Below are positions 649 to 52,973 of a DNA stretch of 64,000 nt, piece by piece. The DNA comes from a bacterium. Its GTDB lineage: Bacteria > Armatimonadota > Zipacnadia > Zipacnadales > UBA11051. The notes beneath the pieces are model-generated. The model did no database searches. It worked only from the letters and a program-made list of their open reading frames with translations, and was not told the origin of the DNA. Location: positions 8,193 through 72,192 of the forward strand of contig JAJFUB010000018.1 in NCBI GenBank assembly GCA_021372615.1. Direction: 5' to 3'. A program made the position numbers and the translations under genes. The number at the start of each line of letters is the position of its first letter. Within the stretch, counting starts at the first letter, position 1.

Positions 649-845
649 GGGGCGGGGGTTGGGGATTGGGCATTGGGGATTGGGGACGGCGGAGGCAACG
701 GCTCGGATCTGCCTCACCCCCGGCGGCGGGGCCCGCCGCACACGTGAGACCGCAAGCGGTCTCGGCGGCACCCGCCGCCTGAGTGTTGCCCTACATGCCC
801 GGCCTTCACCAATGCCCAGTACCCAATGCCCAATCCCTAATGCCC
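649..845. repeat. G-tract spacer GGGGTTGGGGATTGGGCATTGGGGATTGGGG (649-690) and an inverted C-tract copy (812-845) flanking an intergenic region that also carries the ATCTGCCTCACCCCCGGC and GGCACCCGCCGCCTGAGTG motifs
   Basis: Four or more G-runs of 3-4 with 1-4-nt loops (canonical G-quadruplex motif) immediately after the DRTGG stop. The reverse-complement arrangement occurs 120 bp downstream. Confidence 0.6.
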
Positions 846-1706
846 AACACCTCCCTAGACCTGCATATCCATTCGGCGCTGTCACCGTGCGCTGACGAGG
901 CGATGCGGCCACCAGCGGTGCTGCTGACAGCGGAGCGGCGGGGGCTGGACGTGGTGGGGATCGTGGACCACTCAACGGGGCGGAACGGGTGGGCGTTTCT
1001 GACGGCGGCGGCGGCGTTTGAGGTGCAGGTGCTGGCGGGCCTGGAGATCGAGAGCAGTGAGGGCGTGCACCTGCTGGCGCTGTTCGATGGTCGCGAGGCG
1101 TTGGAGGATTTCGACGGGCTGGTGGCGCAACATCTGCCCGGCGGGTTGAACCGGCCGGAGGTGCTGGGGCCGCAACTACTGCTAGATGAGTGGGGCGAAG
1201 TGATCGGGGAGGAGCAGCGGCTGCTCATCACGGCGGTGGACCTGGGGCTGGAGCGGCTGGTGGCCATGATCGCCGATCATGGGGGGCTGAGCATCGCTGC
1301 TCACGTGGACCGGAATGCGAACGGGCTCCTGCCGACGCTGGGGTTCGTGCCGCCGAAGCTGCAGGTGGACCTACTGGAAGTGTCGTGGCGCATGACGCCG
1401 GCGGAGGCGCGGCGGCGGTGGCCGGAACTGGAGGCGTGGCCGCTGATCCGTAGCTCGGATGCGCATGTGCTGGAGGAGATCGGGCAGGGGAGCACGGTGG
1501 TGGAGGGGGGAGGCAAAGGCGACGGCTCCTCACCCCTACCCCTCTCCCTCGCGCGCGGTGAGGCTGCGCGCTCCGGAGAGGGGAACGGCAACGGCAAAGG
1601 CAACGGCAGCGACAACGGCTTGCCGGCTGGAAGCCGGCGCTCCTACGGCCTGCGGCAGTGGGTAGGGGAACTGGCGGAGGCGGTGCGGGTGAGCGAGGAT
1701 GCGTGA
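840..1706 (+). CDS. PHP (polymerase/histidinol-phosphatase) domain protein. The C-terminal region carries an in-frame palindromic repeat insertion.
   Basis: N-terminal LDLHIHSALSPCAD, VGIVDHST and later AAHVDRN motifs typical of PHP metal sites. The six-frame ORF starts at 783 but an internal Met at 840 precedes the PHP motif. The ORF runs through repeat element 1528-1650. Confidence 0.6.
   Translation: MPNTSLDLHIHSALSPCADEAMRPPAVLLTAERRGLDVVGIVDHSTGRNGWAFLTAAAAFEVQVLAGLEIESSEGVHLLALFDGREALEDFDGLVAQHLPGGLNRPEVLGPQLLLDEWGEVIGEEQRLLITAVDLGLERLVAMIADHGGLSIAAHVDRNANGLLPTLGFVPPKLQVDLLEVSWRMTPAEARRRWPELEAWPLIRSSDAHVLEEIGQGSTVVEGGGKGDGSSPLPLSLARGEAARSGEGNGNGKGNGSDNGLPAGSRRSYGLRQWVGELAEAVRVSEDA
1528..1650. 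repeat. family-1 palindromic element (CCTCACCCCTACCCCTCTCCCTCGC...GCTCCGGAGAGGGGAACGGCAACGGC) plus family-2 element (GCCGGCTGGAAGCCGGCGCTCCTACGG), lying inside the PHP ORF
   Basis: Near-identical copies at 10560-10650, 11440-11500, 20090-20150, 27860-27900 and 27990-28050. Family-2 copies at 34875-34905, 53600-53650, 30775-30810 and 56672-56700. Confidence 0.8.
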
Positions 1707-2244
1707 GCTGGCCCTGCACCTGTTGGATATCGCGCGGAACTCGATCGAGGCCGGGGCGACGGCGCTGGAGCTCGAGGTGTGTGAGGAGCCGGCGGCCGAT
1801 GAGTTGACATTCCGCGTGCGGGACAATGGGCGGGGGATGGACGCGGAAGCCCTGCGGCGAGCGACCGATCCTTTTTTTTCAACTCGCACGACGAGGAAGC
1901 AGGGATTGGGTCTCTCGTTGTTGAAGGAAGCCTGCGAGCGGAGCGAGGGGGGGCTCGAGGTGGAGTCGGCGCCAGGGGTCGGAACTACGGTGCGCGGGCG
2001 GATGCGCCTGTCGCATTTGGATCGGCCGCCGCTGGGGAAGATGGGGGGCGTGATCCAGGCGCTGGCATGTGAGGGGGAGCGGGTGAGCTTGCGGTACCGG
2101 CACGTGGTGGGGGGCCGGGAGTTCGTGCTGGATACCGAGGCAGTACGCCGGGAGCTAGGCGGGGGGAGGGTGGATGACCCGGCGGTGCTATGCTGGATTG
2201 AGCGGAGTGTAGAGGAGGGACTGACCGCGCTACACTCGGTTTGA
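1699..2244 (+). CDS. histidine kinase-like ATPase (HATPase_c only, no sensor domain), hydrogenase-operon accessory
   Basis: N/G1/G2-box-like motifs (LLDIARNSIEAGA, VRDNGRGMD, GLGLSLLKEACE, GVGTTV). Its start overlaps the PHP stop. Confidence 0.65.
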   Translation: MRELALHLLDIARNSIEAGATALELEVCEEPAADELTFRVRDNGRGMDAEALRRATDPFFSTRTTRKQGLGLSLLKEACERSEGGLEVESAPGVGTTVRGRMRLSHLDRPPLGKMGGVIQALACEGERVSLRYRHVVGGREFVLDTEAVRRELGGGRVDDPAVLCWIERSVEEGLTALHSV

Positions 2245-2801: not shown

Positions 2802-3281
2802 ATGGCTGCGGCCGAGAACATCTGTTGCGAGACCTTCGGCAAGATTGACGAGATCATCGCCCGCAAGGGGAGCACCCCGGACAGCCTGATCGAGGTGCTG
2901 CACGGGGTGCAGGAGGAGCTGGGCTACCTACCCCAGGCGGTGCAGGAGTATGTGGCCGGGAAGCTGGGGCTGGCCGTGGGGGCCGTGGAAGGGGTCATCA
3001 CCTTCTACAGCTTCTTCACGACCGTGCCGCGCGGGCGGCACAGCATCAAGGTCTGCCAGGGCACGGCCTGCTATGTGCGCGGCGGCAAGCGGGTGCTGGA
3101 GGCGGTGGCGAAGCACTGCGGGTGCGGCGTGGGCGAGACCTCCGAGGACATGCGCTACAGCCTGGACGTGGTGCGCTGCGTCGGGGCGTGCGGGCTGTCA
3201 CCGGTGATGACGGTCGGCGAGGACATCTACGAGCGGGTCAAGCCGACGAAGGTCACGGACATTCTGAACAAGTACGAGTGA
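2802..3281 (+). CDS. hydC: NADH:quinone oxidoreductase subunit E-like [2Fe-2S] protein (hydrogenase HydC/gamma)
   Basis: NuoE signature CQGTACYVRGG...CGCGVGETSEDMRYSLDVVRCVGACGLSPVMTV. ATG immediately follows the upstream stop. Confidence 0.85.
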   Translation: MAAAENICCETFGKIDEIIARKGSTPDSLIEVLHGVQEELGYLPQAVQEYVAGKLGLAVGAVEGVITFYSFFTTVPRGRHSIKVCQGTACYVRGGKRVLEAVAKHCGCGVGETSEDMRYSLDVVRCVGACGLSPVMTVGEDIYERVKPTKVTDILNKYE

Positions 3282-3332
3282 GGTGGGGGTTAGGCATTGG
3301 GGATTGGGCTTTGGGGCTTTGGGATCGGCAAT
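3282..3332. repeat. G-tract spacer (GGTGGGGGTTAGGCATTGGGGATTGGGCTTTGGGGCTTTGGG) between hydC and hydB
   Basis: Same motif family as 649-690, directly after a stop codon and before the RBS. Confidence 0.6.
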
Positions 3333-3345
3333 CAGGAGGATACAG

Positions 3346-6300
3346 ATGCCTGCGTTTAGATCACATGTGCTGGTGTGCGCCGGGGCCGGTTGCGTCTCGT
3401 CGGGGTCACAAGCCGTGGCGGACGCGCTGGAACAGGCGATTGTCGAGAGCGGCCTGAGCGGAGAGATCAAGGTCATCCGCACGGGCTGCATGGGATCGTG
3501 CGACCTGGGGCCGGTGGCCGTGGTGTATCCCGAGGGCGTCTTCTATCAGAAGCTGACGCCGGACGACTGCGCGGTGCTCGTCGAGGAGCACCTGCTGAAG
3601 GGGCGACCGGTGGAGCGGCTGATGTACATGCCGACCGAGGAGTACAAGCCGGCGCTAAGCATGGACGAGATCCCCTTCTTCTCGCTACAGCAGAAGGTCG
3701 TGCTGCGCAACTGCGGCGAGATTGACCCGGGGAACATCGAGGAATACATCGCGCGCGACGGCTACGAGGCGCTGGCCAAGGCGCTGACCGAGATGACGCC
3801 GCAGCAGGTCATCGAGGAGGTCAAGCAGTCGGGCCTGCGCGGGCGCGGGGGCGGCGGCTTCCCGACGGGGCTGAAGTGGGAGCTGACCGCCAAGAGCGCA
3901 GAGACGCCCAAGTACGTGGTGTGCAATGCGGACGAGGGCGACCCGGGCGCGTTCATGGACCGGAGCGTGCTGGAGGGCGACCCGCACAGCGTCATCGAGG
4001 CGATGACCATCGCGGGCTACGCCATCGGGGCGAACAAGGGCTATGTGTACGTGCGGGCGGAGTACCCGCTGGCCATCGCGCGGCTGGGCATGGCGCTGGA
4101 ACAGGCGCGGCAGTTGGGCCTGCTGGGGCAGAACGTCTTCGGGTCGGAGCACAGCTTCGACATCGAGATGCGCATGGGCGCCGGGGCGTTCGTGTGCGGC
4201 GAGGAGACGGCGCTGATGGCCTCCATCGAGGGCCGGCGCGGCGAGCCGCGGCCCCGTCCCCCCTTCCCCGCCCAGAAGGGCCTCTACAACAAGCCCACGC
4301 TGCTCAACAACGTGGAGACGTACGCGAACATCGCGCCGATCATCCTCCACGGCGGGCAGTGGCTGGCGAGCATCGGCACCGAGAAGAGCAAGGGGACGAA
4401 GGTGTTCGCGCTGGCCGGGCATGTGAACAACACGGGCCTGGTGGAGGTGCCCATGGGCACGCCGCTGGGCACGATCATCTACGAGATCGGCGGCGGCATC
4501 CGCAACGGGCGGAAGTTCAAGGCGGCGCAGTCGGGCGGGCCGTCGGGCGGGTGCATCCCCAAGGAGCACCTGAACACGCCGGTGGATTACGAGAGCCTCA
4601 AGGAGCTGGGCTCGATCATGGGCTCCGGCGGCCTGATCGTGATGGATGACACGACGTGCATGGTGGACCTGGCGCGGTTCTTCCTGGAGTTCGTGCAGGA
4701 CGAATCGTGCGGCAAGTGCCCGCCGTGCCGCATCGGGACCAAGCGGATGCTGGAGATTCTCGAGCGCATCTGCGCCGGGCAGGGGCGGGAAGGCGACATC
4801 GAGCTGCTCATCGAGCTGGGCGAGCAGATCAAGCTGACCAGCCTGTGCGGCCTGGGGCAGACAGCGCCGAACCCGGTGCTGAGCACCATCCGGTACTTCC
4901 GCGATGAGTATGAGGAGCACATCCGCGACAAGCACTGCCGCGCGGGAGTGTGCACCGAGATGATGAAGGCGCCGTGCGAACACGCCTGCCCGGCCGGGGT
5001 GGATGTGCCGGCGTACGTGGCGCTGATCGCCGAGGGGCGCTTCGACGAGGCCTACGACGTGATCCGCGACACGAACCCCTTCCCGTCGGTGTGCGGGCGG
5101 GTGTGCACGGCGTACTGCGAGCTGCAGTGCCGGCGGGGGCAACTGGATGACCCGGTGGCCATCCGGCTGCTGAAGCGGGCAGCGGCGGACCACCACACGC
5201 GGCCGTGGCAGCCGCCCCTGGAGCCGCAGCGGCACCAGCGGGTGGCCATCGTGGGAGGAGGCCCGGCGGGGCTGACGGCGGCGGCGGACCTGGTGCGCAA
5301 GGGGTACGAGGTGACGGTGTTCGAGAAGGAGGCGCTGCCGGGCGGGATGATGATGCTCGGAATCCCCGAATACCGCCTGCCCCAGGATGTGCTGCAGCAG
5401 GAGATCCAGGAGATCGTGAACCTGGGCGTGGAGCTGAAGACCGGGGTGAGCTTCGGACGGGACATCACGCTGCAGAGCCTATCTGACGACGGATACGGGG
5501 CGATCCTGCTGGCGGTCGGATGCCAGGAGGGCATGCCCCTGGAGGCGCCCGGCAGCGAGGCTGAGGGCGTCATGGACGCAGTCAAGTTCCTGCGGGACGT
5601 GAACCTGCAACGCCCGCCGGCGATCGGCAAGCGGGTGGCGGTGATCGGGGGCGGAGACACGGCCATCGACTCGGCGCGGTCGGCGCTGCGGTTGGGGGCC
5701 GACGAAGTGCACCTGGTGTACCGGCGGACCGAGGAGGAGATGCCGGCCCATGCGGCCGAGATCGCCGAGGCGCGGCATGAGGGAGTGCAGTTCCACTTCC
5801 TGGCAGCGCCCAAGGAGGTCACGGTCGAGGACGGCAAGGTGGTCGGGATGGTGTGCCAGCAGATGCGGCTGGGCGACTTCGACCGCAGTGGCCGGCGGCG
5901 GCCCGAGCCCGTAGAGGGCGCGGACTTCGCGCTGGAGGTGGACACGATCATCCCGGCCATCGGCCAGAAGATCACCACCGACTGCCTGTGCGTGGAGGCG
6001 TCGCGCGGGAAGCTGTGCGCCGACCCGCGGACCCTGGTGACCAACCTGCCGCACGTGTTCGCGGCGGGCGACGCGACCGACGGGCCGATGACCGTCGTGG
6101 ACGCGATCGCGGACGGGCACAAGGCGGCCCGGGCCATCCACAGCTTCCTGTCCGGCGAGCCGCTGCCGGAGCCGAAGCGGCGAGCCAAGACGAAGGTGAT
6201 GGCCGAGGCGATGGCGGCGCTGGAGGAGGCGACGGAGGAGGAGCCCGCGGCGGAGCCGCAGCGTGTGTCGGATGCCTACCGGCGCTCAGGGTTCTGCGAG

Positions 6301-6387
6301 GTGGAGCTGGGGTACTCGATGCCGGTGGCGTGCCGAGAGGCGTCGCGGTGCCTGCACTGCGACTTCGTGATGGTGGAGGAGGAGTAG
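3346..6387 (+). CDS. hydB: NuoF-like flavoprotein subunit of [FeFe] hydrogenase (HydB/beta). It has an N-terminal Trx-like [2Fe-2S] domain and a C-terminal glutamate-synthase-small-subunit (GltD/NfnB/DPD-like) FAD/NAD(P)H domain.
   Basis: The ATG at 3346 has an AGGAGG RBS; the six-frame ORF start at 3283 lies in a G-tract spacer. NuoF motifs are present (GRGGGGFPTGLKWE, CGKCPPCRIG, SLCGLGQTAPNPV). GltD/DPD-like Fe-S helical domain (CEHACPAGVDVPAYV, CGRVCTAYCELQC). Rossmann folds VAIVGGGPAGLTAAADL and VAVIGGGDTAIDSAR. Confidence 0.85.
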   Translation: MPAFRSHVLVCAGAGCVSSGSQAVADALEQAIVESGLSGEIKVIRTGCMGSCDLGPVAVVYPEGVFYQKLTPDDCAVLVEEHLLKGRPVERLMYMPTEEYKPALSMDEIPFFSLQQKVVLRNCGEIDPGNIEEYIARDGYEALAKALTEMTPQQVIEEVKQSGLRGRGGGGFPTGLKWELTAKSAETPKYVVCNADEGDPGAFMDRSVLEGDPHSVIEAMTIAGYAIGANKGYVYVRAEYPLAIARLGMALEQARQLGLLGQNVFGSEHSFDIEMRMGAGAFVCGEETALMASIEGRRGEPRPRPPFPAQKGLYNKPTLLNNVETYANIAPIILHGGQWLASIGTEKSKGTKVFALAGHVNNTGLVEVPMGTPLGTIIYEIGGGIRNGRKFKAAQSGGPSGGCIPKEHLNTPVDYESLKELGSIMGSGGLIVMDDTTCMVDLARFFLEFVQDESCGKCPPCRIGTKRMLEILERICAGQGREGDIELLIELGEQIKLTSLCGLGQTAPNPVLSTIRYFRDEYEEHIRDKHCRAGVCTEMMKAPCEHACPAGVDVPAYVALIAEGRFDEAYDVIRDTNPFPSVCGRVCTAYCELQCRRGQLDDPVAIRLLKRAAADHHTRPWQPPLEPQRHQRVAIVGGGPAGLTAAADLVRKGYEVTVFEKEALPGGMMMLGIPEYRLPQDVLQQEIQEIVNLGVELKTGVSFGRDITLQSLSDDGYGAILLAVGCQEGMPLEAPGSEAEGVMDAVKFLRDVNLQRPPAIGKRVAVIGGGDTAIDSARSALRLGADEVHLVYRRTEEEMPAHAAEIAEARHEGVQFHFLAAPKEVTVEDGKVVGMVCQQMRLGDFDRSGRRRPEPVEGADFALEVDTIIPAIGQKITTDCLCVEASRGKLCADPRTLVTNLPHVFAAGDATDGPMTVVDAIADGHKAARAIHSFLSGEPLPEPKRRAKTKVMAEAMAALEEATEEEPAAEPQRVSDAYRRSGFCEVELGYSMPVACREASRCLHCDFVMVEEE

Positions 6388-6567: not shown

Positions 6568-8304
6568 ATGTCAGGATTGAGCATAACGATCAACGGTCAG
6601 GCCGTGCAGGCAGAGCCCGGGATGACCGTGTTGCAGGCAGCCAAGGGCGCCGGGCTGAAGATCCCGACGCTGTGCCACCACCCGGACCTGCCGCCGATGG
6701 GGGCGTGCCGGGTGTGCCTGGTCGAGATCGAGGGCGAGCGCGCACTGCAGCCCTCGTGCACGTACCCGGTGCGGGAGGGGATGGTCATTCAGACCCACTC
6801 GCCGACGGTGCGGCAGGCGCGGCGTACGGTGGTGGAGCTGCTGCTGTCGGACCACCCGTCGGACTGCACGGCGTGCGCGCGCAACAAGAACTGCGAACTA
6901 CAGTCGCTGGCGGAGGAGTTGGGGATTCGCGAGGTGCGAGTGAAGGCGCCGGCGCCAGGCCACGCGGTGGATGACTCGAGTCTGGCCGTGGTGCGCGACC
7001 CGGACAAGTGCATCCTGTGCCGGCGGTGCCTGCAGACGTGCGACCAGATCCAGGGCGTGTCGGGGCTGCGCATCAAGGGCCGCGGGTATGATAGCGTGGT
7101 CGGGGCGCCGTTCGATACGCCGCTGGGCCACGCGCTGTGCGTGAACTGCGGGCAGTGCATCAACCGGTGCCCGACCGGGGCGCTGACAGAGAAGACGCAG
7201 ATCCCCGAGGTCTGGGCGGCGCTGGAAGACCCGACCACGTTCACCGTGGTGCAGACGGCGCCGGCCGTGCGCATCGCGCTGGGCGAGGCGCTGGGGATGC
7301 CGGTGGGCGAGATCGTGACCGGGAAGATGACCTCGGCGCTGCGGCTGCTCGGGTTTGACCGAGTGTTCGACACGGACTTCACGGCCGATCTGACCATTAT
7401 GGAAGAAGGCTTCGAGCTGATCAAGCGGGTGAAGGAGGGCGGGGTGCTGCCGCAGCTCACCTCGTGCAGCCCGGGCTGGATCAAGTTCATCGAGCACTTC
7501 TACCCGGAACTGCTGCCGAACGTGTCGAGCTGCAAGTCGCCGCAGCAGATGTTCGGCGCCCTGGCCAAGACGTATTTCGCCGAGCAGGCGGGTGTGGACG
7601 CGGCGAAGATGAAGGTCGTGTCCATCATGCCATGTGTGGCCAAGAAGTTCGAGGCCGCCCGACCGGAGATGTGCGACTCGGGCTACCAGGACGTGGACTA
7701 TGTGCTGACCACCCGCGAGTTGGCGCAAATGATCAAGGAGAAGGGCATCGAGTTCGCGGCGCTGCCGGAGAGCGACTACGACGACCCGCTGGGCGAGTCC
7801 ACCGGGGCGGCGGTGATCTTCGGGGCGACCGGGGGCGTGATGGAGGCGGCGCTGCGTACGGCGTACGAGGTGCTCACCGGCGAGAAGCTGGAGGATGTCA
7901 ACATCGAGGCGGTGCGCGGGATGGAGGGCGTCCGCGAGGCGACGGTGATGGTCGGCGACCTGCCGGTGAAGGCGGCAGTGGCGCACGGGCTGTCCAACGC
8001 GGCGCAGGTGCTCGACAAGATCGTGGCGGGTGAAGCGGACTACCACTTCATCGAGATCATGTGCTGCCCGGGCGGGTGCCTGGGCGGGGGCGGGCAGCCG
8101 ATCCCCACGTCCCCGGAGATCCGGAAGCAACGGGCGGCGGCGATCTACCAGGCGGACCGTGACCTGCCCATCCGGCGCTCGCACGAGAACCCGTCCATCA
8201 AGGCGATCTATGAGAAGTTCCTGGGTGAGCCGCTGAGCCACAAGTCGCACCACCTGCTGCACACGGAGTATACGCCGCGGACGCGGGAGGCGGTGCAGGA
8301 GTAG
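6568..8304 (+). CDS. hydA: [FeFe] hydrogenase catalytic subunit (M3-type, HydA/alpha)
   Basis: N-terminal 2Fe-2S (CHHPDLPPMGACRVC). His-ligated and 2x[4Fe-4S] motifs (CTACARNKNCELQ, CILCRRCLQTC, CVNCGQCINRCP). H-cluster motifs L1 TSCSPGW (7459-7479), L2 MPCVAKKFEAARPEM and L3 EIMCCPGGCLGGGGQP (8053-8100). Confidence 0.9.
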   Translation: MSGLSITINGQAVQAEPGMTVLQAAKGAGLKIPTLCHHPDLPPMGACRVCLVEIEGERALQPSCTYPVREGMVIQTHSPTVRQARRTVVELLLSDHPSDCTACARNKNCELQSLAEELGIREVRVKAPAPGHAVDDSSLAVVRDPDKCILCRRCLQTCDQIQGVSGLRIKGRGYDSVVGAPFDTPLGHALCVNCGQCINRCPTGALTEKTQIPEVWAALEDPTTFTVVQTAPAVRIALGEALGMPVGEIVTGKMTSALRLLGFDRVFDTDFTADLTIMEEGFELIKRVKEGGVLPQLTSCSPGWIKFIEHFYPELLPNVSSCKSPQQMFGALAKTYFAEQAGVDAAKMKVVSIMPCVAKKFEAARPEMCDSGYQDVDYVLTTRELAQMIKEKGIEFAALPESDYDDPLGESTGAAVIFGATGGVMEAALRTAYEVLTGEKLEDVNIEAVRGMEGVREATVMVGDLPVKAAVAHGLSNAAQVLDKIVAGEADYHFIEIMCCPGGCLGGGGQPIPTSPEIRKQRAAAIYQADRDLPIRRSHENPSIKAIYEKFLGEPLSHKSHHLLHTEYTPRTREAVQE

Positions 8305-9440: not shown

Positions 9441-9546
9441 AGGTGGAGGATTCTTTGTGAAACTTCGTTCACAAATGCTAGTTCTGGGGTTTTGCTGTAC
9501 CTGCGATTATGGAGAGACGAATCAACACACACGCCGGGGACCTGTG

Positions 9547-11313
9547 ATGGAGCATGTGGATGAAGCGCGCACCAGAGCTGAACATGGGGGGCGGCACCGG
9601 AGGGTCTATGACGAGTGGCCGGTCGGGGTGCGGAGGTTCACGCAGGAGCGGCAGTACCTGGGGCTCGGCGACGAAGTGTACCCCCGCATCCTTGATACGC
9701 TGAGCCGCATCTTCCACGGGAAGTATGAGGAAGCAGCGCTGTGCTGGGGGATTGGATCGGGGAAGTCGTTCCTGTGCTCGCTGGCGCTGCTGTACATGGT
9801 GTACCGCACGCTGTGTCTGCGGGACCCGCAGCAGTACTACGGCCTGGCCGAGGGGAGCCCGATCCATATCGTGACGGTCGGGCCCACGGCACGCGTGGCC
9901 GAGAAGGCGATCTATGGCCAGATCCGCGGCATGGTGTCGCGGTCGCCGTGGTTCGCCGACAAGTACCCGGCCGACACCCGGACACGCCGCGAACTGCACT
10001 TCCCCAAGCATGTGGAGGTGCTGCCCGGGAACTCCAGCGACCTGTTCCCGCTGGGGCTCAATGTGCTGTGTGCGACCATGGACGAGGCAGCCTTCTTCGT
10101 CGAGACCCAGAGCGGCGGGCAGGAGGCAGCCGAAGAGGTGTACCTCGCACTGCAGCGGCGCATCAAGTCGCGGTTCGGTAGCCGGGGGCTCGTGCTAATC
10201 GCGTCCTCCCCACGGCACGGCGAGGACTTCATCATGCAGAAGCTGGCCGAGGCTGAGACGAACCCGACCGTCTTCGCGTCGCGCAAGGCCACCTGGGAAG
10301 TCAAGCCCGGCTTCAGCGGAGAGACGTGCGTCGAGGGCGGCCTGGAGGTGCCTGTGGAGCTGGCCGGGGAGTTCCGGCGCAACCCGCAGAAAGCGCGCCG
10401 TGACCTGGCCGCCCAGCCCGGAGCGGCGTACCAGCCGTTCTTTGTGGACATGGGGGCGCTGGAGGCGGCGTGCGGTGGGGCGCGGGACGGCGACGGCAAC
10501 GGCGTCCCACCCCCTGCCCCCTCCGCACGGGGGAGGGGGAACGTCAACGAGAACGTCAACGTCAACGGCGACGGCGTCCTCACCCCTACCCCTCTCCCTC
10601 GCCCGCCTTCGCCCTCCGGGCTACGGCAGGCTCCGGAGAGGGGAACGGCTGACGACAACGGCGGCCTACCCCGTCAGCGCTGCGCGCTGACACCCCTCCC
10701 TGGTAGGGAGGGGAAGGGCAACGGCGTGGAGGTGCGGCATCCGTTTGCGGAGGAGGGGAGGCTGGCGGATTGGTTCCGGCCTGATGATGCGGTGCCGCGC
10801 TATGTCCATATAGACCTGGGCCTCAAGAAGGACGCCTGCGGCATGGCCATGGCCAAGGTAGTCAGCGAGGGCGGGCAGCCTGTCGCGGTGGTCGAGCTGA
10901 TGCTGCAACTAACGGCACCGGCGGGCGGTGAAGTGAACCTCGCCACGCCACGGGAAATCGTGCTCGCTCTGCGCCGGCGAGGGTTCCCCATCGGCCAGGT
11001 GAGCTACGACGGATGGCAGAGCGCCGATAGCCTGCAGATCCTGCGCCGACACGGCGTGCGCGCGGTGACCGTGTCCGTGGACCGCGACCTGGGAGCGTAT
11101 GAGACGCTCAAGGAGCTGGCCAATGACGGGCGGCTGCGCATGTACCCCTTCAAGCCGTTCCTGGAGGAGTGCCGTCGGCTCGAACTGATCCAGGGGACCA
11201 AGGTGGATCACCCGGCCCATGGGTCCAAGGATGTGGCCGACGCGGTGGCCGGGGCGGTGAGCGAGGCGGTGAAGGCCTGGGGGGGGACGGATGTGAGGGG
11301 GAGGATCGTGTGA
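9547..11313 (+). CDS. terL: phage terminase large subunit (ATPase plus RNaseH-like nuclease). The inter-domain linker carries an in-frame palindromic repeat insertion.
   Basis: Walker A GIGSGKS, Walker B/catalytic VLCATMDEAAFF, C-terminal nuclease-like domain (YVHIDLGLKKDACGMAMAKV...DGWQSADS...DHPAHGSKDVADAV). The ORF track starts at 9457 and the first ATG is at 9475. An internal Met at 9547 (MEHVDE) is preferred but the start is uncertain. Repeat segment 10486-10725 translates as a low-complexity G/N/P-rich linker. Confidence 0.8.
   Translation: MEHVDEARTRAEHGGRHRRVYDEWPVGVRRFTQERQYLGLGDEVYPRILDTLSRIFHGKYEEAALCWGIGSGKSFLCSLALLYMVYRTLCLRDPQQYYGLAEGSPIHIVTVGPTARVAEKAIYGQIRGMVSRSPWFADKYPADTRTRRELHFPKHVEVLPGNSSDLFPLGLNVLCATMDEAAFFVETQSGGQEAAEEVYLALQRRIKSRFGSRGLVLIASSPRHGEDFIMQKLAEAETNPTVFASRKATWEVKPGFSGETCVEGGLEVPVELAGEFRRNPQKARRDLAAQPGAAYQPFFVDMGALEAACGGARDGDGNGVPPPAPSARGRGNVNENVNVNGDGVLTPTPLPRPPSPSGLRQAPERGTADDNGGLPRQRCALTPLPGREGKGNGVEVRHPFAEEGRLADWFRPDDAVPRYVHIDLGLKKDACGMAMAKVVSEGGQPVAVVELMLQLTAPAGGEVNLATPREIVLALRRRGFPIGQVSYDGWQSADSLQILRRHGVRAVTVSVDRDLGAYETLKELANDGRLRMYPFKPFLEECRRLELIQGTKVDHPAHGSKDVADAVAGAVSEAVKAWGGTDVRGRIV
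10486..10725. repeat. family-1 composite element inserted inside terL
   Basis: CCACCCCCTGCCCCCTCCGCACGGGGGAGGGGG. (AACGTC/AACGGC) hexamers. CCTCACCCCTACCCCTCTCCCTCGCCCGCCTTCGCCCTCCGGGCTACGGCAGGCTCCGGAGAGGGG. CACCCCTCCCTGGTAGGGAGGGG. Confidence 0.8.
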
Positions 11314-11319
11314 AGGAGG

Positions 11320-11570
11320 AGGCCGACCCTCACCCCCGGCCGCTCTCCCAGAGGGAGAGGGGAGCAGACGGCGGGGGTTGAAACCCCCGCCTGACGGGGA
11401 GGCGTCCCTCCGGGACGCCGGGACGGCAACGGCAACGGCGTCCTCACCCCTACCCCTCTCCCTCGGCCCGCTGCGCGGGCCTCCGGAGAGGGGAACGGCA
11501 ACGACGGCCTACCCCAGCCCTGCGGGCCACCCCTCCCTGAAGGGAGGGGGGAACGGCAACGACGGTGACG
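11320..11570. repeat. family-1 composite element between terL and portal (modules A, B and C)
   Basis: GGGGGTTGAAACCCCCGCCTGACGGGGAGGCGTCCCTCCGGGACGCC (module A, two short hairpins). AACGGC hexamers. CCTCACCCCTACCCCTCTCCCTCGGCCCGCTGCGCGGGCCTCCGGAGAGGGG. CCACCCCTCCCTGAAGGGAGGGGGG. Confidence 0.8.
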
Positions 11571-11719
11571 ACGGCGGTGTACGGGCGGCTCGGAAGCGAG
11601 GCGCTCTGTTCGGTTCTGGTGGGACGATGTGATGCTCTGACGGGGTCAGCCCCCCAGAGGACCGGATGCAGCCGGTCTTCCGGGGACGGACCCCACCCCG
11701 TACAGGTGGAGGCGAGGCA

Positions 11720-13090
11720 ATGTCGGATCTCGTGAAGGCGCAGGTTGTGGGGACGGACGGCAGAGGCGTGAGCAAGCAGTTGCCCGACTCGCCCTGGCAT
11801 GAGGCCTACGCACGGGGGGAAGTGGTGGAGCCCCCGTATGATCTGGAAGCGCTGGCAGCGCTGTATGAGACGAACTCGACCCACAAGGCGTGCGTGGACG
11901 CCAAGACCATCAACATCGTGGGGCTCGGGTACCGGTTCGTGCCCGTCGGGGGCGAGCGTGAGGCCGACAGCGGCAACCTGGCGCTGCTGCAGCACCTGTT
12001 CGACAACTCCAACCCCGAGATGACCTTCACCGAGGTGCTGCGGGCCGTGTGGACCGATGTGGAGTGCCTCGGGAATGGGTACCTGGAGTTGACCCGCAAC
12101 AGCCGGGGGCAGATTGACGGGATGTACCACGTGCCCGGGACGACGGTGCGGGTGCTGGCCGACCGATCCGGGTTCGTGCAGGTGCGCGACGGGAGGAAGC
12201 GGGTCTTCCGGAATGTGGGTGGAGAGCCGGTCGCGGTCGGTGACCGCTCCCACAACAGCACACAGGACGGGGGCGACGGGGGGCGGGGGGCGACTGCCAG
12301 CCTGGCAGATCATAGCGGGCGGGGTACGAGCGCCGCCCTGGCAGACCACAGTGGGCGGGGTACAAGCCCCCGCCCTACAGGGGACGCGGGCGAACAGAAT
12401 GAGGTGCTGCACTTCATGAAGTACACGCCGCAGTCCTCGTACTACGGGGTGCCCGACATCATCCCGGCGGTGTCCGCAGTGGCCGGCGATAAGGCGGCGC
12501 GCGAGTACAACATTGACTTCTTCAGCCACAACGCAGTGCCCCGGATGGCGATCATCGTCGAAGGGGGCGAGCTGTCCGAGGGCGTGGTGACGCAACTCAA
12601 GCACTTCATGGAGAGTGAGATCAAAGGGCATGGGCACAAGACGCTGGTGCTCGAGGTGCCCGGCGGCGGCGCCAACGTGAGGCTCGAGAAGCTCACCGTC
12701 GGAGGCTGCGAGGATGCGGCGTTCCTGGAGTACCGTCGGGCCAACCGGGATGAGGTGCTGCTGGTGCACCGCGTCCCGCCCAGCAAAGTGACCGTGGTCG
12801 AGAACGCCAACCTGGCCAACAGCAATGACCAGGACAAGACCTTCCGCGAGCAAGTCGTGCGGCCGGAACAGCGGCGGATCGAGTACCGGTTGAACCGGCT
12901 GGTGCGCGAGCAGCTCGGGATCGGGGACTGGGCCTTCCAGTTCAGGGAGATGGACCTGTCCGAGGCGCGCGAGGAGGCCGAGGTGGCTGCCATCTATGCC
13001 GGGATCGGAGTGCTGAGCGCGGAGGAAATCCGGGGGCGGCTCGGGATGGTGGCGTCGCCTGTGGCCCAGGCCGTCAGCGCTGGGCGGTGA
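11720..13090 (+). CDS. phage portal protein (HK97-like family)
   Basis: Immediately downstream of terL. 457 aa with a portal-like central region (KTINIVGLGYRF, YYGVPDIIPAVSAVAGDKAAREYNIDFFSHNAVPRMAIIVEGG). GGTGGAGG RBS before the ATG at 11720. The ORF contains a family-3 palindrome and an imperfect 36-bp tandem duplication (12234-12375). Confidence 0.7.
   Translation: MSDLVKAQVVGTDGRGVSKQLPDSPWHEAYARGEVVEPPYDLEALAALYETNSTHKACVDAKTINIVGLGYRFVPVGGEREADSGNLALLQHLFDNSNPEMTFTEVLRAVWTDVECLGNGYLELTRNSRGQIDGMYHVPGTTVRVLADRSGFVQVRDGRKRVFRNVGGEPVAVGDRSHNSTQDGGDGGRGATASLADHSGRGTSAALADHSGRGTSPRPTGDAGEQNEVLHFMKYTPQSSYYGVPDIIPAVSAVAGDKAAREYNIDFFSHNAVPRMAIIVEGGELSEGVVTQLKHFMESEIKGHGHKTLVLEVPGGGANVRLEKLTVGGCEDAAFLEYRRANRDEVLLVHRVPPSKVTVVENANLANSNDQDKTFREQVVRPEQRRIEYRLNRLVREQLGIGDWAFQFREMDLSEAREEAEVAAIYAGIGVLSAEEIRGRLGMVASPVAQAVSAGR
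12234..12375. repeat. family-3 palindrome (GGTCGCGGTCGGTGACCGCTCCCACA) plus an imperfect about 36-bp tandem duplication, inside the portal ORF
   Basis: Encodes ...SLADHSGRGTSAALADHSGRGTS... Family-3 copies at 6405, 35704, 37690-37765 (two inverted copies) and 51395. Confidence 0.7.
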
Positions 13091-13300
13091 GGGGCGGGGG
13101 GCAAGGGCGGGGGTTGAAACCCCCGCCTGACGGGGAAGCGTCCCTCCGGGACGCGGACGGAGGACGGCAACGGCGGCCCACCCCCTGCCCCCTCCCCACA
13201 GGGGAGGGGGAACGGCAACGGCAACGGCAGCAACGACGACCTACCCCCTGCCCCCTCCCTACAGGGAGGGGGGACGGCAACGACAACGGCGAACGGCGGT
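13091..13300. repeat. family-1 composite element (modules A, B and C twice) between portal and protease
   Basis: GGGGGTTGAAACCCCCGCCTGACGGGGAAGCGTCCCTCCGGGACGC. CCACCCCCTGCCCCCTCCCCACAGGGGAGGGGG. CTACCCCCTGCCCCCTCCCTACAGGGAGGGGGG. Confidence 0.8.
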
Positions 13301-13324
13301 GGCGCGCAGGCGAGCTGAGAGACA

Positions 13325-13801
13325 TTGGCGGGCTTGGAAGGTGATGGAGTGGCGGACGAGACGACCGCGGCGGAGTGGCAGTTCGAGGGCGTCGCGTCCA
13401 GCACCAGGCTGGACCGGCAACGGGAGAAGATCAGTAAGGGGGCGCTGCGACAGGTAGCGCAGAGAGGGCCCGTGGACCTGGTCGCGGCGCATAACGAGCG
13501 AGAGGTTGTGGTCGGCAGAATCGAGACGTGTGAGGTCGAGGGGGAGCTGCTGCGGGTCCGCGGGCGGCTGCGCGTGGACGCGCCCGAGGCCCGGGAGCTG
13601 CGACAACGGCTCGCGCGGGGCGAGAGGCTGGGGCTCAGCCTGGGCGGCAAAGTGAGCCGGGCCCACTGGGGCTGGGACAGCAATACCGAGGGACCCGTCC
13701 GGCATCTGGATGAGGTGGCCGTCGAGCATGTGGCGGTGTGCCGAGCGGAGCAAGCCGTGAACCCGGATGTGCGAGTACGACTAGTTGAGGGTGAGCAGTG
13801 A
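13325..13801 (+). CDS. prohead protease, HK97/U35-S78 family (start uncertain)
   Basis: FEGVASSTRLDRQREKISKGAL and LVAAHNEREVVVGRIE resemble the conserved S/H blocks of HK97 gp4-type proteases. It sits between the portal and major capsid genes. Confidence 0.5.
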   Translation: MAGLEGDGVADETTAAEWQFEGVASSTRLDRQREKISKGALRQVAQRGPVDLVAAHNEREVVVGRIETCEVEGELLRVRGRLRVDAPEARELRQRLARGERLGLSLGGKVSRAHWGWDSNTEGPVRHLDEVAVEHVAVCRAEQAVNPDVRVRLVEGEQ

Positions 13802-14217
13802 ACGGTGTGGTGCGCCGGATAGCCGAGAAGCTGCGGTGGGCGTGGCGGAGGCGACGAGGTGAGGACAAACGAGGGGACGACCTGGCCGAACGGCTCGGAC
13901 AGATCGAGGAGAAGCTGAGGGAGATCGAGGCGAGCATGCAAGCCGATGGCGGAGGCGCGACAGTGACGACGGGCAGCCAGCAGGCGCAGGAAGAGCGGGG
14001 ACCGGAGGTGTGGGAGGCGGCGGGGACGACGCCCCGGCCGCTGGTGGAGCGCACCGCAGTGCTGGCGAAGGCACAGCGGGCCGGAGACATCGTCCTGGCG
14101 GGCGATGAGGACGTGGCAGACGAGACGATGGTCGAGGTCAGGCCCGGAATGCCCCAGGGGCTACCGGGACAGCAGGCGCGGCGGAAGGCGGCGCGATTCT
14201 GGGAAGGGGTGCTGTGA
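13798..14217 (+). CDS. hypothetical phage protein (possible scaffold/decoration), charged and helical
   Basis: GTG start overlaps the protease stop (GTGA). Stop overlaps the capsid ATG (TGAATG). EKLREIEASMQ coiled-coil-like segment. Confidence 0.35.
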   Translation: MNGVVRRIAEKLRWAWRRRRGEDKRGDDLAERLGQIEEKLREIEASMQADGGGATVTTGSQQAQEERGPEVWEAAGTTPRPLVERTAVLAKAQRAGDIVLAGDEDVADETMVEVRPGMPQGLPGQQARRKAARFWEGVL

Positions 14218-15159
14218 ATGAGTGTCGAGGAGATGCTGCAGAAGGCCATTGACACGACGGATCTGGCGGCCGGTGGGCTGCTGGGGCCGGAGCAGTCGCG
14301 GAAGTTCACCGACTTGGTCATTGACCAGTCGGTGATGCTGCAGGAGGCGCGCGTGGTGCGGATGCGGTCGGCAGTGACCGAGATCGACCGCATCGCCACC
14401 GCCGGCCGGGTGAGCCAGCTCAAGAGCGAGGGCGTGGCGCCGAGCACGCTGGCCGAGCCCGCGTTCTCGAAGGTGACGCTGACGGCGGTGGATATCATCA
14501 CCCCGTTCGAGCTGACCTTCGAGGCGCTCGAGGACAACGTCGCAGGCGGGAACCTGGAGGATACGGTGATCCGGGTCATGGCCAAGCAGACGGCGACGGA
14601 CCTGGAGGAGCTGGCGATCAAGGGCGACGTCACGTCGGGCGACACGTTCCTGGCGGGCATGAACGGCTGGCGCGTGCTGGCTGACGGCGGCCACGTGGAG
14701 GACCTGGCGGGCGCGACGCTGGACAAGGGCGCGCTGAGCGCGATGTTCCGGGCATTGCCCGACAAGTACAAGCGCAACTACGGGGACCTGCGCTTCTACT
14801 TCGCGCCGACAGTGACCCAGGACTGGCATGACACGTTCGCCGACCGCGGCACCAGCGCGGGCGACAAGGCGCTGCTGGGCGCCCAGGTGCCGCCGTACAT
14901 GGGCGTGCCGCTGGTGACCGTGCCGACCATCCCCACGAACCTGGCCGGGGTGAGCGGGACCACGGGCACGAACCTGAGCTACGGGTTCCTGACCCCGCGC
15001 GACAACCTGATCTTCGGCATCCACCGGGAGATCCGCATCGACAAGGACCGCGACGTGCTGCGCGGTGTGAACATCTACGCGATCACCACCCGTGTGGCCG
15101 TGGAGTTCGAGAATGACGATGCGGTGGTGCTGGCGGTGAATGTCGGGAAGACGGCGTAG
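14218..15159 (+). CDS. phage major capsid protein, HK97 fold
   Basis: 313 aa. Gene order is terminase, portal, protease, capsid. HK97-MCP-like blocks are present (TATDLEELAIKGD, GMNGWRVLADGG, PTVTQDW, DVLRGVNIYAITTRVAVEFENDDAVV). Confidence 0.75.
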   Translation: MSVEEMLQKAIDTTDLAAGGLLGPEQSRKFTDLVIDQSVMLQEARVVRMRSAVTEIDRIATAGRVSQLKSEGVAPSTLAEPAFSKVTLTAVDIITPFELTFEALEDNVAGGNLEDTVIRVMAKQTATDLEELAIKGDVTSGDTFLAGMNGWRVLADGGHVEDLAGATLDKGALSAMFRALPDKYKRNYGDLRFYFAPTVTQDWHDTFADRGTSAGDKALLGAQVPPYMGVPLVTVPTIPTNLAGVSGTTGTNLSYGFLTPRDNLIFGIHREIRIDKDRDVLRGVNIYAITTRVAVEFENDDAVVLAVNVGKTA

Positions 15160-15335
15160 GGGCGGGAGAGGGAGAGGGCGGGGGTTGGCCCCCCCGGGAA
15201 GCGGGGCGGCAACGGCGGCCCACCCCCTGGCCCCCTCCGGAGACGCTGCGCGTCTCGCAGGGAGGGGGAACGGCAACGGCGACGACAAGGGCGGGGCCTG
15301 CGGCTCGTTCTGGGCCGCAGGCCTCTGCATGAGTG
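15160..15335. repeat. family-1 element plus an extra hairpin (GGCCTGCGGCTCGTTCTGGGCCGCAGGCC) after the capsid gene
   Basis: CCACCCCCTGGCCCCCTCCGGAGACGCTGCGCGTCTCGCAGGGAGGGGG. Confidence 0.75.
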
Positions 15336-15345
15336 GAGATGCGTG

Positions 15346-15729
15346 ATGAGACGGAAGCGATGGGCAGGACTGATTGCGGCAGTGTTGGTGCTGAGCTGTA
15401 GCGTCGGGCTGGCTGAGGATCTGGTGCTGTCGGTAGGGGCGGTTGGTGGGATCGCGCCGGATGGTGTGGTGGGGCCTGAGCTGTCGCTGCGGCTCCTGCC
15501 GCTGAAGGGCAGCACGACAGGACAGGGAACGCCATATCTGTGGCTCGATGTGGCGGCGACGACTGACGACTTCTCGCAGTGGGGCGTGATGACAGGACTG
15601 AGCGCGGACCTCGCGGCGGTGAGCAGTCTGACAGCCGGGATCGCACAGCGAGGCGGGTTCGGACGGGACTGGACGCGCGAGGTGTGGGTGCTGTATGTCA
15701 GCCGGAGCTTCTCGTCGCTGTTTGAGTAG
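15346..15729 (+). CDS. small secreted hypothetical protein (signal peptide)
   Basis: N-terminal MRRKRWAGLIAAVLVLSCSVGLA signal-peptide-like segment. GGAG RBS. Confidence 0.4.
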   Translation: MRRKRWAGLIAAVLVLSCSVGLAEDLVLSVGAVGGIAPDGVVGPELSLRLLPLKGSTTGQGTPYLWLDVAATTDDFSQWGVMTGLSADLAAVSSLTAGIAQRGGFGRDWTREVWVLYVSRSFSSLFE

Positions 15730-15762
15730 TACCGGCTTGCGGGAGTTCGCGTCACAAGGGCG

Positions 15763-15851
15763 GTGGGTGTCGCGGCGAGGACGCGCAGCGGTCTCCGAGC
15801 GGCGGCCCCACCGCTGGTCGTGGGGCCCGTCGCACACGACGCGACACCCAC
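15763..15851 (+). other. nested stem-loop structure (GGTGGGTGTCGCG...CGCGACACCCAC enclosing GGCCCCAC...GTGGGGCC) upstream of the LamG structural gene. Candidate structured RNA, attenuator or terminator.
   Basis: Two nested inverted repeats of 12 and 8 bp seen in sequence. The intergenic region spans 230 bp. Confidence 0.35.
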
Positions 15852-15958
15852 GACCTGTCACCGTTAGCATGCGAACCTAGTCAAGTCGGCACCAGGCCGG
15901 TGGCGAGGCGAGTCGGGACGAGCGGACGGACCGAGCTTGAGCGGAGGATCAGTCGAAC

Positions 15959-18900
15959 ATGCGTAAGCAATTCCTGTATCTGGATAAGGCAGGCTTCTAC
16001 TACAACGCGCCGGGCAACATCAGCATGGGCTCGGGAGCGAAGGGGAGCGTGTTCTTCTGGTACCATCCGGCGCCGTGGAACGACGGCAACCAGCCGGTCT
16101 GGGAGGCCACGTTCGACAGCAGCAACTACCTGCGGTGTGGCTTTACGGGCAACTCGCGCTTCAGCTTCGTGAGCTGCTCGAACGGCGTATGGTACGCCGC
16201 ACACTGGAACGACTTCTTTGTGAAGGACTACCAGCGCTGGCTGCCAGTGCTGTGCACGTGGGACTTCACCACGGCCGGCGCCGGACAGCTGCGGCTGTAT
16301 CTGGACGGCCAGGAAGCGCCGACGCAGTCGAACACCGCCGAGGCGCCCCTCGGCGAGGCTCTGCGGCTGTACCTGGGGGCGCGGTCGGACACCACGGCGG
16401 TGGGACTGGACGGGTACCTGGACAACATCGCGATATGGGACGGGGTCATGACGGCGACCCAGTACGCGGCGCTGACCCGGGGCGCTGCCACGTACGCCGA
16501 GCGGCAAGCGGCGCGACGACGCCTGCCCCGACAGAGCGACGGGAATGGGACGCTGACTTTCCTGGCACCGTTCGACGGGACGTTCGCGGCGCAGATCGCC
16601 GGGGGCGACCCGCAGGCGTACTGGATGGTGGGGGCCAGCGACTACCACCACTTCGCGCGGCTGGATGACGGCTCGCGGAGCCGGGGTCGGCGGCAGATGT
16701 TCCGGTTTGGCATCCCGCGTCACGATGATTCGGATGACGACCGGGTGCCGCTGCGCGCGGTGCTGGGGCTGCTGCGCGACCAGGGCGCGTCGCAGTACAC
16801 GACGCTCGTGGACCAGGCGACGCACTCGGAGATCAACGTCAGCCAGTACAAGGCGATCTCGGGCTATGGGCAGGGCGTGGGATGGCTGCGCTCGGCCATA
16901 GACCCCGGTGACCTGCCGTACCCGACGACGGTGCGCATGCGCGTGAACCTGCCGGATGCGACGAACCCCAAGAACACGAGGATCTGCCTGGGCCCGCTGA
17001 CGTACATCAGCGGCGGGATGCACGGGAACAACTTCACGACCTGGGGCACGGGCGAGAGCTTCATGGTCGTCGCCGACGCCGGGAACACCGCGGGGACGAT
17101 CAAGACGAGCCTGAGCGCCCGGACGGATGGATACTGGGCGGCGGCCGAGATCTCCATGCAGACGGGGGCGTGCGCCGGCTGCCGGCTGAAGGTGAGCGGG
17201 TACACGGCGAGCACCGGAGTGCTGACGCTGTCGGGGACGTTGCCGGCCACGCCGGCGGCGGGCGATGTGGGCGTGGTGGACTTCCGGGGCCGGCTGGTGC
17301 CGACCGGCAATCCGTGCGATGAGACCCAGAGCATGGAGGCGTGGCTGTGGGAGGAGTATGGGGAGGACAGGCCGTGGATCGAGCTGGAGGCGGTGTACGG
17401 GGCGACCAGCGGCTTTGGGATGGCGCGCTACCAGCGGGGCCGGTCCACATGGATGAACCTGACGCGAGCGAACGGCGGCCTGCAGGGCGCGTACCTGATG
17501 ATGGGGCGGAACGCCTGGGAGACGCCGGAGAGCTTCAGCTGCAACATCCTGATCGAGAGCCTGGCCATTGACGGGCCGGGCAGCTACCAGGTGATGTCGC
17601 CGGAGACGACGCGTTCGGGGCGGGGGTTCGAGCTGGCGGACCACTTCCTGCTGCGCGACATGGGCAACGGGCATAGCTGCCGGGTGTGGCGGGCGGAGAA
17701 CTGCGGGTGGAACAGTGCGGCCCCCACCGTGAACGCCGACGCGAGCACGGCGGTCGCGGACCTGCAAGTCGCAGGGACGTGGCGGGAGGAGGCCTTCTTC
17801 CACAGCGCAGTGCGGACAGGCGAGGGGACCGACGCGGTCGTGGCGGTGGTCAGAGGTACGAGTTCTGAGGGGATTGACCGGCTGGGATACGTGCGAGGGC
17901 AGTGGAATGCGTCCACCCAGCGCATCACCTGGCAAGACGAGACACCGCCGACGGGCAAGAGCAACCCGTTCCTGGACATGAGCCTCCTGCGGCCGTGGGA
18001 AAACCGTGACTCTACCTGGGGCCTGGAGGGCGACCCCGGGCTGGCGCGGATCTTCAGCAACGCGGGGAGCGAATGGGCGCTGCTGCTGGGCGGGAACGAG
18101 GACAACCCGGATCATTACTATGTGCGGGCATATCACGGCGCTCCGGACCGCTGGAGCTTTGACCCGCAGCAGCACTGGTGGCCTGAGAACCCGGTGGTGC
18201 CGGGGTTCGGGGGCGTGGACATGATGCCGCCGAGCGGCGGTGGGGTGAACTGCTTCGGCAACCGGGACGCGGAATGGATGGTGCTGCAGAACCCGTACGC
18301 GCGGGACGCGAGCCGGCGCTTCGCGGCCTACGCCCGGTTCAAGACGATCCTGCCGCTGACGGGGATGATCGGGGGCAACCGGCGCCCGTTGGCGGGGTGG
18401 ACCAGCCCAGACCTGAAGAGCTTCTTCCTGCTGCCCCATGGCAACAGCCTGTCGCCGCTGGGGATCGGCGAGGGGTTCACGATGTGCCCCTATGCCGTGA
18501 GCGATGACGTGATCGCGATGGTGGTGCAGTTCTACGGCGGCGTGGATCGGCTGTGGGCGTCGGATGATGACCGGCACTTCCAGCAGGTGATCTACAGCTT
18601 CATGCCCGACAGCAACCCGCTGGACGTGTTCCGGCTGGGCGACAGGCGGATCTACTACTCTGCTACCTCCGGCAGCGTCTTCAACCTAGCGTACCAGGAC
18701 TACAACCGCGAGACGTTCTACCAGCTCAGCTCGGGGCAGGTAAGCGGGACCCTGGAGACAGCAGCGCTGGTCAAGCCGGCGGACGGATGGGGCGGCCTGA
18801 TCGTGAACGTCGCGCCGCAGCAGGGCGCAGTGCGGGTCGAGGTGCTGAACGCCCTGACGGACGAGGTGGTCGCGGGGTTCGGCACCGAGGACTGCGACAG

Positions 18901-52861: not shown

Positions 52862-52973
52862 GTTCTGAATGCGGAACGATGAATGATGGGGGCGGAGGCC
52901 GTTGGAGCGCGGCTCTCCAGAGCCGCACCTGGGCCGCAAACGGCTGCGGCTCTGGAGAGCCGCGCTCCGACGA

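Follow-up and report, generated by a model that had tools for sequence, protein, structure and literature searches.

In [FeFe] hydrogenases the textbook L1 motif, TSCCPxW, supplies two cysteines, one acting in the proton relay and the other ligating the cubane, that is, the [4Fe-4S] part of the H-cluster ([4Fe-4S]H). In about 20% of the sequences analysed by Kertess et al. (2017, PMC5855289) serine is found at the ligand position, and the same authors were surprised that the engineered Cys-to-Ser exchange in CrHydA1 (C115S) caused the loss of most of the cubane and abolished activity. The natural serine enzyme that has been studied, the HydABC complex of Acetobacterium woodii, is active; there, one of the Cys ligands of the A1 cluster (Cys299 in Thermoanaerobacter kivui) has given way to Ser301, the infrared signature is normal and the activity similar (Katsyv et al. 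2023, PMC10021017). The serine-containing motif, TSCSPGW, is also mentioned in passing in a paper on Melainabacteria (PMC3787301). The subject of the present analysis is hydA, a gene in a 64,000-nucleotide stretch of DNA from a bacterium of the Armatimonadota (GenBank assembly GCA_021372615.1, contig JAJFUB010000018.1, positions 8,193 to 72,192; this whole stretch is called “the window” below), whose product combines TSCSPGW with an additional cysteine in the L3 motif (MCC instead of MAC). An earlier note on this DNA had read the two departures as a compensatory re-wiring of cubane ligation, or else as the sign of an altered proton-transfer pathway. As first stated the finding matters little, as the L1 serine has been published for an active enzyme of solved structure and at least 100 species have the pair; HydA is a further member of an already known clade. 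What is new is confined to one point, the near absence of the extra L3 cysteine from enzymes that lack the L1 serine. The searchable literature yielded no paper containing MCCPGGC or MCCxxGC and no account of MCC as a variant or of its reliance on serine, and we regard these two as a modest new observation.

H-cluster motifs and family of HydA

The hydA gene (6568..8304, forward strand) encodes an M3-type [FeFe] hydrogenase catalytic subunit of 578 amino acids, in which a [2Fe-2S] cluster, a His-ligated [4Fe-4S] cluster, two further [4Fe-4S] clusters, the H-domain and a C-terminal small-subunit-like domain follow one another. The Pfam matches (Fer2_4, NADH-G_4Fe-4S_3, Fer4, Fe_hyd_lg_C with 3.3e-99, and Fe_hyd_SSU) make up the full M3 architecture, and all ligands of the F-clusters and the remaining ligands of the H-cluster are present. 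HydA scores 896.5 bits against NCBIfam NF040763 (“NADH-dependent [FeFe] hydrogenase, group A6”; cutoff 765), covering profile positions 2-571 of 571, and 538 bits against TIGR02512 (cutoff 406). In the PDB, A. woodii HydA1 (7q4v_A) matches it best, with E 2.5e-205; T. kivui HydA1 (8a6t_A) and CpI come next. Its closest homologues in the databases come mainly from metagenome-assembled genomes of Armatimonadota.

L1 occupies positions 7459..7479 and reads T298 S299 C300 S301 P302 G303 W304 (acc tcg tgc agc ccg ggc tgg). The proton-relay cysteine, C300 (7465-7467), is kept, while S301 (agc, 7468-7470) stands where CpI has its cubane-ligating C300 and A. woodii its Ser301; the earlier note had placed the change at this ligand, and the alignment bears it out. 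That alignment is ungapped, with residues 298-304 of A. woodii HydA1 (likewise TSCSPGW) in register with HydA over residues 208-309. L2, MPCVAKKFE (7627..7653, residues 354-362), is canonical, as had been claimed, and contains K359 and the cubane ligand C356, which is invariant in alignment A1. L3, EIMCCPGGC (8053..8079, E496 to C504), carries the extra cysteine, C499 (tgc, 8062-8064), at the variable x of MxC, ahead of the canonical ligands C500 and C504; M498 C499 C500 P501 are encoded by atg tgc tgc ccg (8059-8070), and M498, C500, G503 and C504 are invariant in the same alignment. The motifs, codons and coordinates quoted in the earlier note for L1 and L3 are thus all exact in the 578-residue frame. 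A sequencing error at the two codons, which the note had allowed for, is rejected, both motifs being identical in two 98%-identical proteins of independent assemblies (P0002 from ENA and P0003 from Logan), and the C499 codon (TGC) being two adjacent bases away from the Ala codon (GCC) of a 93%-identical relative. An AlphaFold2 model of HydA (from an alignment of 50 sequences; pLDDT 91, pTM 0.91), built without cofactors and used for secondary structure only, places C499 in the loop after the strand formed by residues 494-498.

The H-domain, L2 and the L3 region EIMCCPGGCLGGGGQP are those of group A [FeFe] hydrogenases; L1 departs from the textbook form in that the relay cysteine is followed by serine at the ligand position. 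As about 20% of the sequences analysed by Kertess et al. (PMC5855289) show this departure, the textbook motif is too narrow, and the serine does not exclude HydA from the family. Numbering in the proton-pathway region is that of CpI plus one, so that C299, E279, S319, E282 and R286 of CpI correspond to C300, E280, S320, E283 and R287 of HydA, all of them present and nearly invariant in alignment A1; K359 and M498 (K358 and M497 in CpI) are present as well. Pfam detects no PAS or signalling domain in HydA. A sensory enzyme (groups C/D, HydS) or one with an altered proton pathway, as the earlier note had envisaged, is rejected on these grounds together with the score above the group A6 cutoff.

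Among the described enzymes, A. woodii HydA1 of HydABC(D) (7Q4V/7Q4W/8A5E, PMC10021017) comes closest, with the same M3 architecture, an alignment over nearly the full length, the same L1 and a canonical L2; in contrast to HydA, its L3 is ELMACPGGC. T. kivui HydA1 (8A6T) and CpI (e.g. 4XDC) share the fold, the domain order, L2, the L3 ligands and the proton pathway, but carry Cys at the L1 ligand position and Ala at x (TSCCPxW / MACxxGC). A natural clade with an altered number of cysteines in an H-cluster motif is also known in group B2, for example CpIII, but there the additional cysteine lies in L1 itself (TSCCCPxW), serine is absent, and the proteins have about 450 residues and are predicted to be monomeric (PMC5506873). 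Membership of HydA in this group was considered and rejected in view of its L1, its length and a TIGR04105 score of 167 bits, far below the cutoff of 450. HydA is an ordinary member of a large clade of NADH-linked HydABC-type hydrogenases with serine in L1 (group A6, A. woodii HydA1-like), and it is probably functional.

Coupling between the L1 serine and the L3 cysteine

Within this clade the L1 of HydA is the rule. Among the 120 nearest 90%-identity clusters (64-100% identical to HydA), 116 have TSCSPGW (or SSCSPGW), 77 of them with MAC and 39 with MCC; the other four combine TSCCPGW with MAC. The description of the motifs as non-canonical therefore holds against the textbook consensus, but not among the relatives of HydA. 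To the same effect, at least 120 loci encoding MCCxxGCxxGGGQP turned up when the DNA of one genome per GTDB species was scanned for this motif; the matches listed span Clostridia, Armatimonadota, Omnitrophota, Verrucomicrobiota/Kiritimatiellia, Deltaproteobacteria/Thermodesulfobacteriota, a Melainabacteria-like “Cyanobacteria” genome, Mollicutes-like lineages and others. L1 could be read at 107 of the listed loci (at 12 more it is cut off by the end of the contig, at one it is masked): 105 have TSCSPGW, one is a truncated or frameshifted open reading frame (ORF) with serine at the ligand position, and one has TSCCPGW. The exact TSCSPGW/MCC pair thus occurs in at least 105 species of many phyla, and ordinary enzymes carrying TSCSP with MCCP, which the earlier note itself had named as what would speak against its view of the pair as unusual, are numerous. 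In a large and already characterized clade of NADH-linked hydrogenases, the Ser/Cys pair is what one normally finds.

The two residues are coupled nevertheless, and the coupling is one-directional: serine in L1 does not need Cys499, but Cys499 almost needs the serine. The first half of this statement follows from the Ser-type relatives, about half of which have MAC, and from A. woodii HydA1, which combines Ser with Ala. For the second half three samples are informative. In the pooled sets of near relatives the combinations of L1 ligand residue and x are Ser and Ala in 85 sequences, Ser and Cys in 81, Cys and Ala in 14, Cys and Thr in 6, and Cys and Cys in none, so that Cys at x is found in 81/166 sequences on the Ser background versus 0/20 on the Cys background (Fisher p=5e-6). 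Among representatives at 50% identity, which can be taken as roughly independent lineages, it occurs in 3/14 on the Ser versus 2/96 on the Cys background (odds ratio 12.8, Fisher p=0.014). Finally, the MCC species among the matches listed in the genome scan number 106 with Ser against one with Cys, although Ser-type enzymes amount to only about 13-20% of the family. The co-variation that the earlier note had proposed to look for is therefore real in so far as Cys499 is nearly restricted to the Ser background, while Ser can do without Cys499; likewise, the compensatory pairing it had suspected stands as a statistical link, but not as a loss in L1 that has to be made good in L3, given 85 MAC against 81 MCC sequences and an active A. 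woodii enzyme with MAC.

On the Ser background the state of x changes often. Fitch parsimony on neighbor-joining trees requires at least 10 switches between Ala and Cys among 116 sequences and at least 14 among 187; on the same trees the L1 residue changes two and four times, respectively. To turn an Ala codon (GCC) into one for Cys (TGC), two nucleotides have to change, and the result is seen directly when the window is compared with a 93%-identical relative from the same kind of operon, L121, in which codon 499 differs from that of HydA in two adjacent bases and encodes Ala. Ser or Gly, as possible intermediates at x, were found in none of 186 close relatives. In the family as a whole x may be A, S, T, G, C or M; on the Cys background (96 representatives) it is A in 80, S in 11, T in 2, C in 2 and M in 1. 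Since serine, which is common there, is one mutation away from cysteine, the rarity of Cys at x on this background is not a matter of mutational access. The local tree by itself says less, as 13 switches distributed according to the number of leaves would miss all 25 leaves of the Cys background with p ~0.15 (a rough calculation); because of this, and because the sequences are related, the coupling signal rests mainly on the wider samples. As to a further residue that might account for the tolerance of Ser or Cys499, a mutual-information scan of 112 Ser-type sequences found no third position that follows the A/C state beyond what clade structure explains.

Some individual sequences deserve mention. 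A subclade of the nearest relatives with Cys in L1 (P0275, P0277, P0278, P0281, P0284 and P0285) has Thr at x (EIMTCPGGC or EVMTCPGGC); x therefore varies on the Cys background too, yet avoids Cys. The rare natural combinations of Cys with Cys, found in L120 (from an Izemoplasmatales metagenome-assembled genome; the single TSCCPGW locus of the genome scan), P0249 and P0264, join TSCCPGW or TSCCPAW to MCC and would be useful as natural controls for the coupling hypothesis. Met at x is seen in P0121 (L3 EIMMCEGGC or EIMMCNGGC), a giant [FeFe]-hydrogenase-like protein of 4122 residues with seven matched H-domain stretches, which had the top bit score in the search of the representatives.

The asymmetry may merit the attention of specialists: with serine in L1, Cys at x is common and has come and gone repeatedly, and with cysteine in L1 it is all but excluded. 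This asymmetry bears on the puzzle that a Cys-to-Ser exchange kills CrHydA1, yet serine is natural in about 20% of the sequences and at least one such enzyme is active; the A/C state at x offers a cheap handle on how the first and second coordination spheres of [4Fe-4S]H tune the H-cluster.

Ligation of the cubane

The reading we favour, with a probability of roughly 0.6, is that of a Ser-ligated cubane with an intact proton relay and C499 in the second sphere. The cubane of HydA would then be held by S301, C356, C500 and C504, as in the cryo-electron microscopy structure of the A. woodii enzyme, and protons would be carried by C300 and the chain E280/S320/E283/R287, as in CpI. C499 would not be a ligand; most likely it is a second-sphere residue, contributing to packing or hydrogen bonding near the cubane. 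It would represent a polymorphism specific to the clade that recurs at x of MxC, a position variable by nature, and it would be dispensable for activity and tolerated, perhaps mildly favoured, only where the L1 ligand is the smaller, non-thiol serine instead of cysteine. The 10-14 independent switches imply that Ala and Cys at x are both viable and often interchanged.

Two considerations weigh against this reading. The Cys-to-Ser exchange in CrHydA1 concerns the very ligand position at which HydA has Ser, and it destabilizes the cubane and abolishes activity (PMC5855289); since the engineered enzyme is inactive whereas that of A. woodii is active, serine must be accommodated by the natural background, and natural Ser enzymes must hold some compensating feature, of which C499 could be one in half of them. 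Further, the near-exclusion of Cys from x on the Cys background would not be shown by a purely neutral polymorphism, and this argues that residue 499 senses residue 301.

A second explanation, along the lines of the earlier note, we consider possible but rather doubtful: C499, next to C500, would provide the fourth thiolate to [4Fe-4S]H, restoring all-Cys ligation and leaving S301 as a bystander. Ligation of one cubane by tandem cysteines has a precedent in cluster N2 of complex I. The near-restriction of MCC to enzymes with L1 serine, in the listed species matches as in the representatives and the near sets, fits this idea, as does the inactivity of CrHydA1 with C115S alone, and the recurrence, at least 10-14 times, of a two-nucleotide change from Ala to Cys with no intermediates in close relatives suggests selection. 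On the other hand, Ser and Ala suffice in A. woodii HydA1 and in roughly half of the clade, so the extra cysteine is not needed; close relatives toggle between Ala and Cys within an otherwise identical operon, which is hard to square with a change of first-sphere ligand; and the lack of switches on the small local Cys background (p ~0.15, a rough estimate) is not significant alone. That in about half of the Ser-type group A6 enzymes, HydA included, C499 and C500 together bind the [4Fe-4S] cluster, with relatives switching between this and ligation by the serine oxygen, is a reading that we hold to be somewhat less likely still. If true, it would amount to a naturally re-wired first coordination sphere.

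At the opposite end, C499 might be functionally unlinked to S301, a neutral polymorphism that arose in a clade which happens to be of the Ser type. Nearly all MCC cases do lie in one clade, no third alignment column follows the A/C state beyond clade structure, and the tree-aware local test of coupling is weak; but the far larger Cys background has Ser at x in 11/96 and Cys in 2/96, though the two are one mutation apart, and repeated two-step switches between Ala and Cys that skip the intermediates are not expected from drift, which makes such hitch-hiking improbable. That HydA is a divergent or sensory hydrogenase with an altered proton pathway, an inactive pseudo-enzyme or an assembly error has nothing in its favour beyond the departure from the textbook L1 consensus and is very improbable indeed, in view of the retained relay cysteine and pathway residues, the absence of PAS by Pfam, the passed A6 cutoff, the complete set of F-cluster and other H-cluster ligands, and the recurrence of the same motifs in independent assemblies.

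The hydrogenase operon and the remainder of the window

Upstream of hydA, on the same strand, lie the genes for its partners. hydC (2802..3281) encodes a NuoE-like, thioredoxin-like [2Fe-2S] subunit of 159 residues (Pfam 2Fe-2S_thioredx, 1.8e-48; NCBIfam NuoE/HoxE family). The following ORF (3283..6387, forward strand; up to 1034 residues, with the likely start ATG at 3346) was identified by Pfam, NCBIfam and PDB matches as a fusion of hydB and gltD. Its NuoF-like core contains an N-terminal thioredoxin-like [2Fe-2S] domain, the FMN/NAD site and a [4Fe-4S] cluster, and residues 4-542 match residues 4-544 (of 599) of A. woodii HydB (E 2.9e-249). The C-terminal part is a GltD/NfnL-like module (Fer4_20 and the FAD/NAD(P)H domain Pyr_redox_2) with a Cys-rich tail; residues 541-1006 correspond to residues ~101-567, the GltD-like portion, of the large subunits 9bov_A and 8oh5_C and of NfnA (9n5u_A), with E values of 1e-102 to 1e-120.

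The NuoE-like HydC and the NuoF-like HydB, with its FMN/NAD site and N-terminal [2Fe-2S] domain, adjoin hydA as is characteristic of the electron-bifurcating HydABC enzymes (Bfu type 1), and partners of these two kinds also accompany the A. woodii enzyme. The operon is, however, not the classic bifurcating HydABC operon that the earlier note had seen in it: A. woodii HydB ends in a ferredoxin-like domain with two [4Fe-4S] clusters (B3/B4, the proposed ferredoxin site), for which no Fer4-type Pfam match was found in HydB of the window, and the GltD-like module stands in its place. The series of NuoE-, NuoF-, GltD/NfnL- and NuoG-like modules recalls the Bfu-type transhydrogenases Stn/NfnABC (8OH5, 9BOV, 9N5U; PMC7483475, PMC12018979), but in these the GltD-like domain belongs to the NuoG-like large subunit, which lacks an H-cluster, whereas in the window it is the C-terminal end of HydB that carries this domain, and the large, NuoG-like subunit is an entire hydrogenase with a full H-domain.

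The fused HydB is also encoded beside hydA in L121, the 93%-identical relative with MAC, and at 7-9 MCC loci among the matches listed, the phyla being Omnitrophota, Verrucomicrobiota, Armatimonadota and Thermodesulfobacteriota. A link between MCC and the fusion was considered and rejected: a classic HydB accompanies hydA at about 78 of the listed MCC loci, and the fused one is present in a relative with MAC, so the motif pair is independent of the fusion. NfnL-like domains have been noted in “FeFe hydrogenase group A” sequences (PMC12018979), and a literature search on the combination of Bfu, GltD, hydrogenase and NADPH returned nothing. The HydC/HydB-GltD/HydA operon may specify an uncharacterized hydrogenase that links H2 to NAD(H) as well as NADP(H), and the fusion could indicate a variant of the bifurcating hydrogenase that is coupled to NADP(H).

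Just upstream of hydC, and on the same strand, Pfam identifies a PHP-domain ORF (783..1706), which overlaps the next ORF by a few bases, and this next one, of 181 residues, which contains only a HATPase_c domain (1699..2244); to go by their position, the two may be transcribed together with the hydrogenase genes and have accessory or regulatory functions. Genes for the maturases HydE, HydF and HydG were not seen among the 23 ORFs of the window scanned with Pfam.

Downstream of hydA, a Phage_portal ORF (11666..13090, forward strand; 2.4e-39) is flanked by two large ORFs with no Pfam match (9457..11313, forward, and 14161..15870, reverse strand), and the region 9457..15870, directly following hydA, may be a prophage or a phage remnant. 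It is succeeded by an ORF of 1136 residues (15959..19369, forward strand) with Laminin_G_3 at the N-terminus and a Rha78A-like Ig domain at the C-terminus; its product is probably secreted and either binds glycans or acts as a glycosidase. Further on, at 51473..52939 on the reverse strand, an ORF unrelated to the hydrogenase combines Radical_SAM, SPASM and PqqD domains, an architecture resembling that of maturases of ribosomally synthesized and post-translationally modified peptides.

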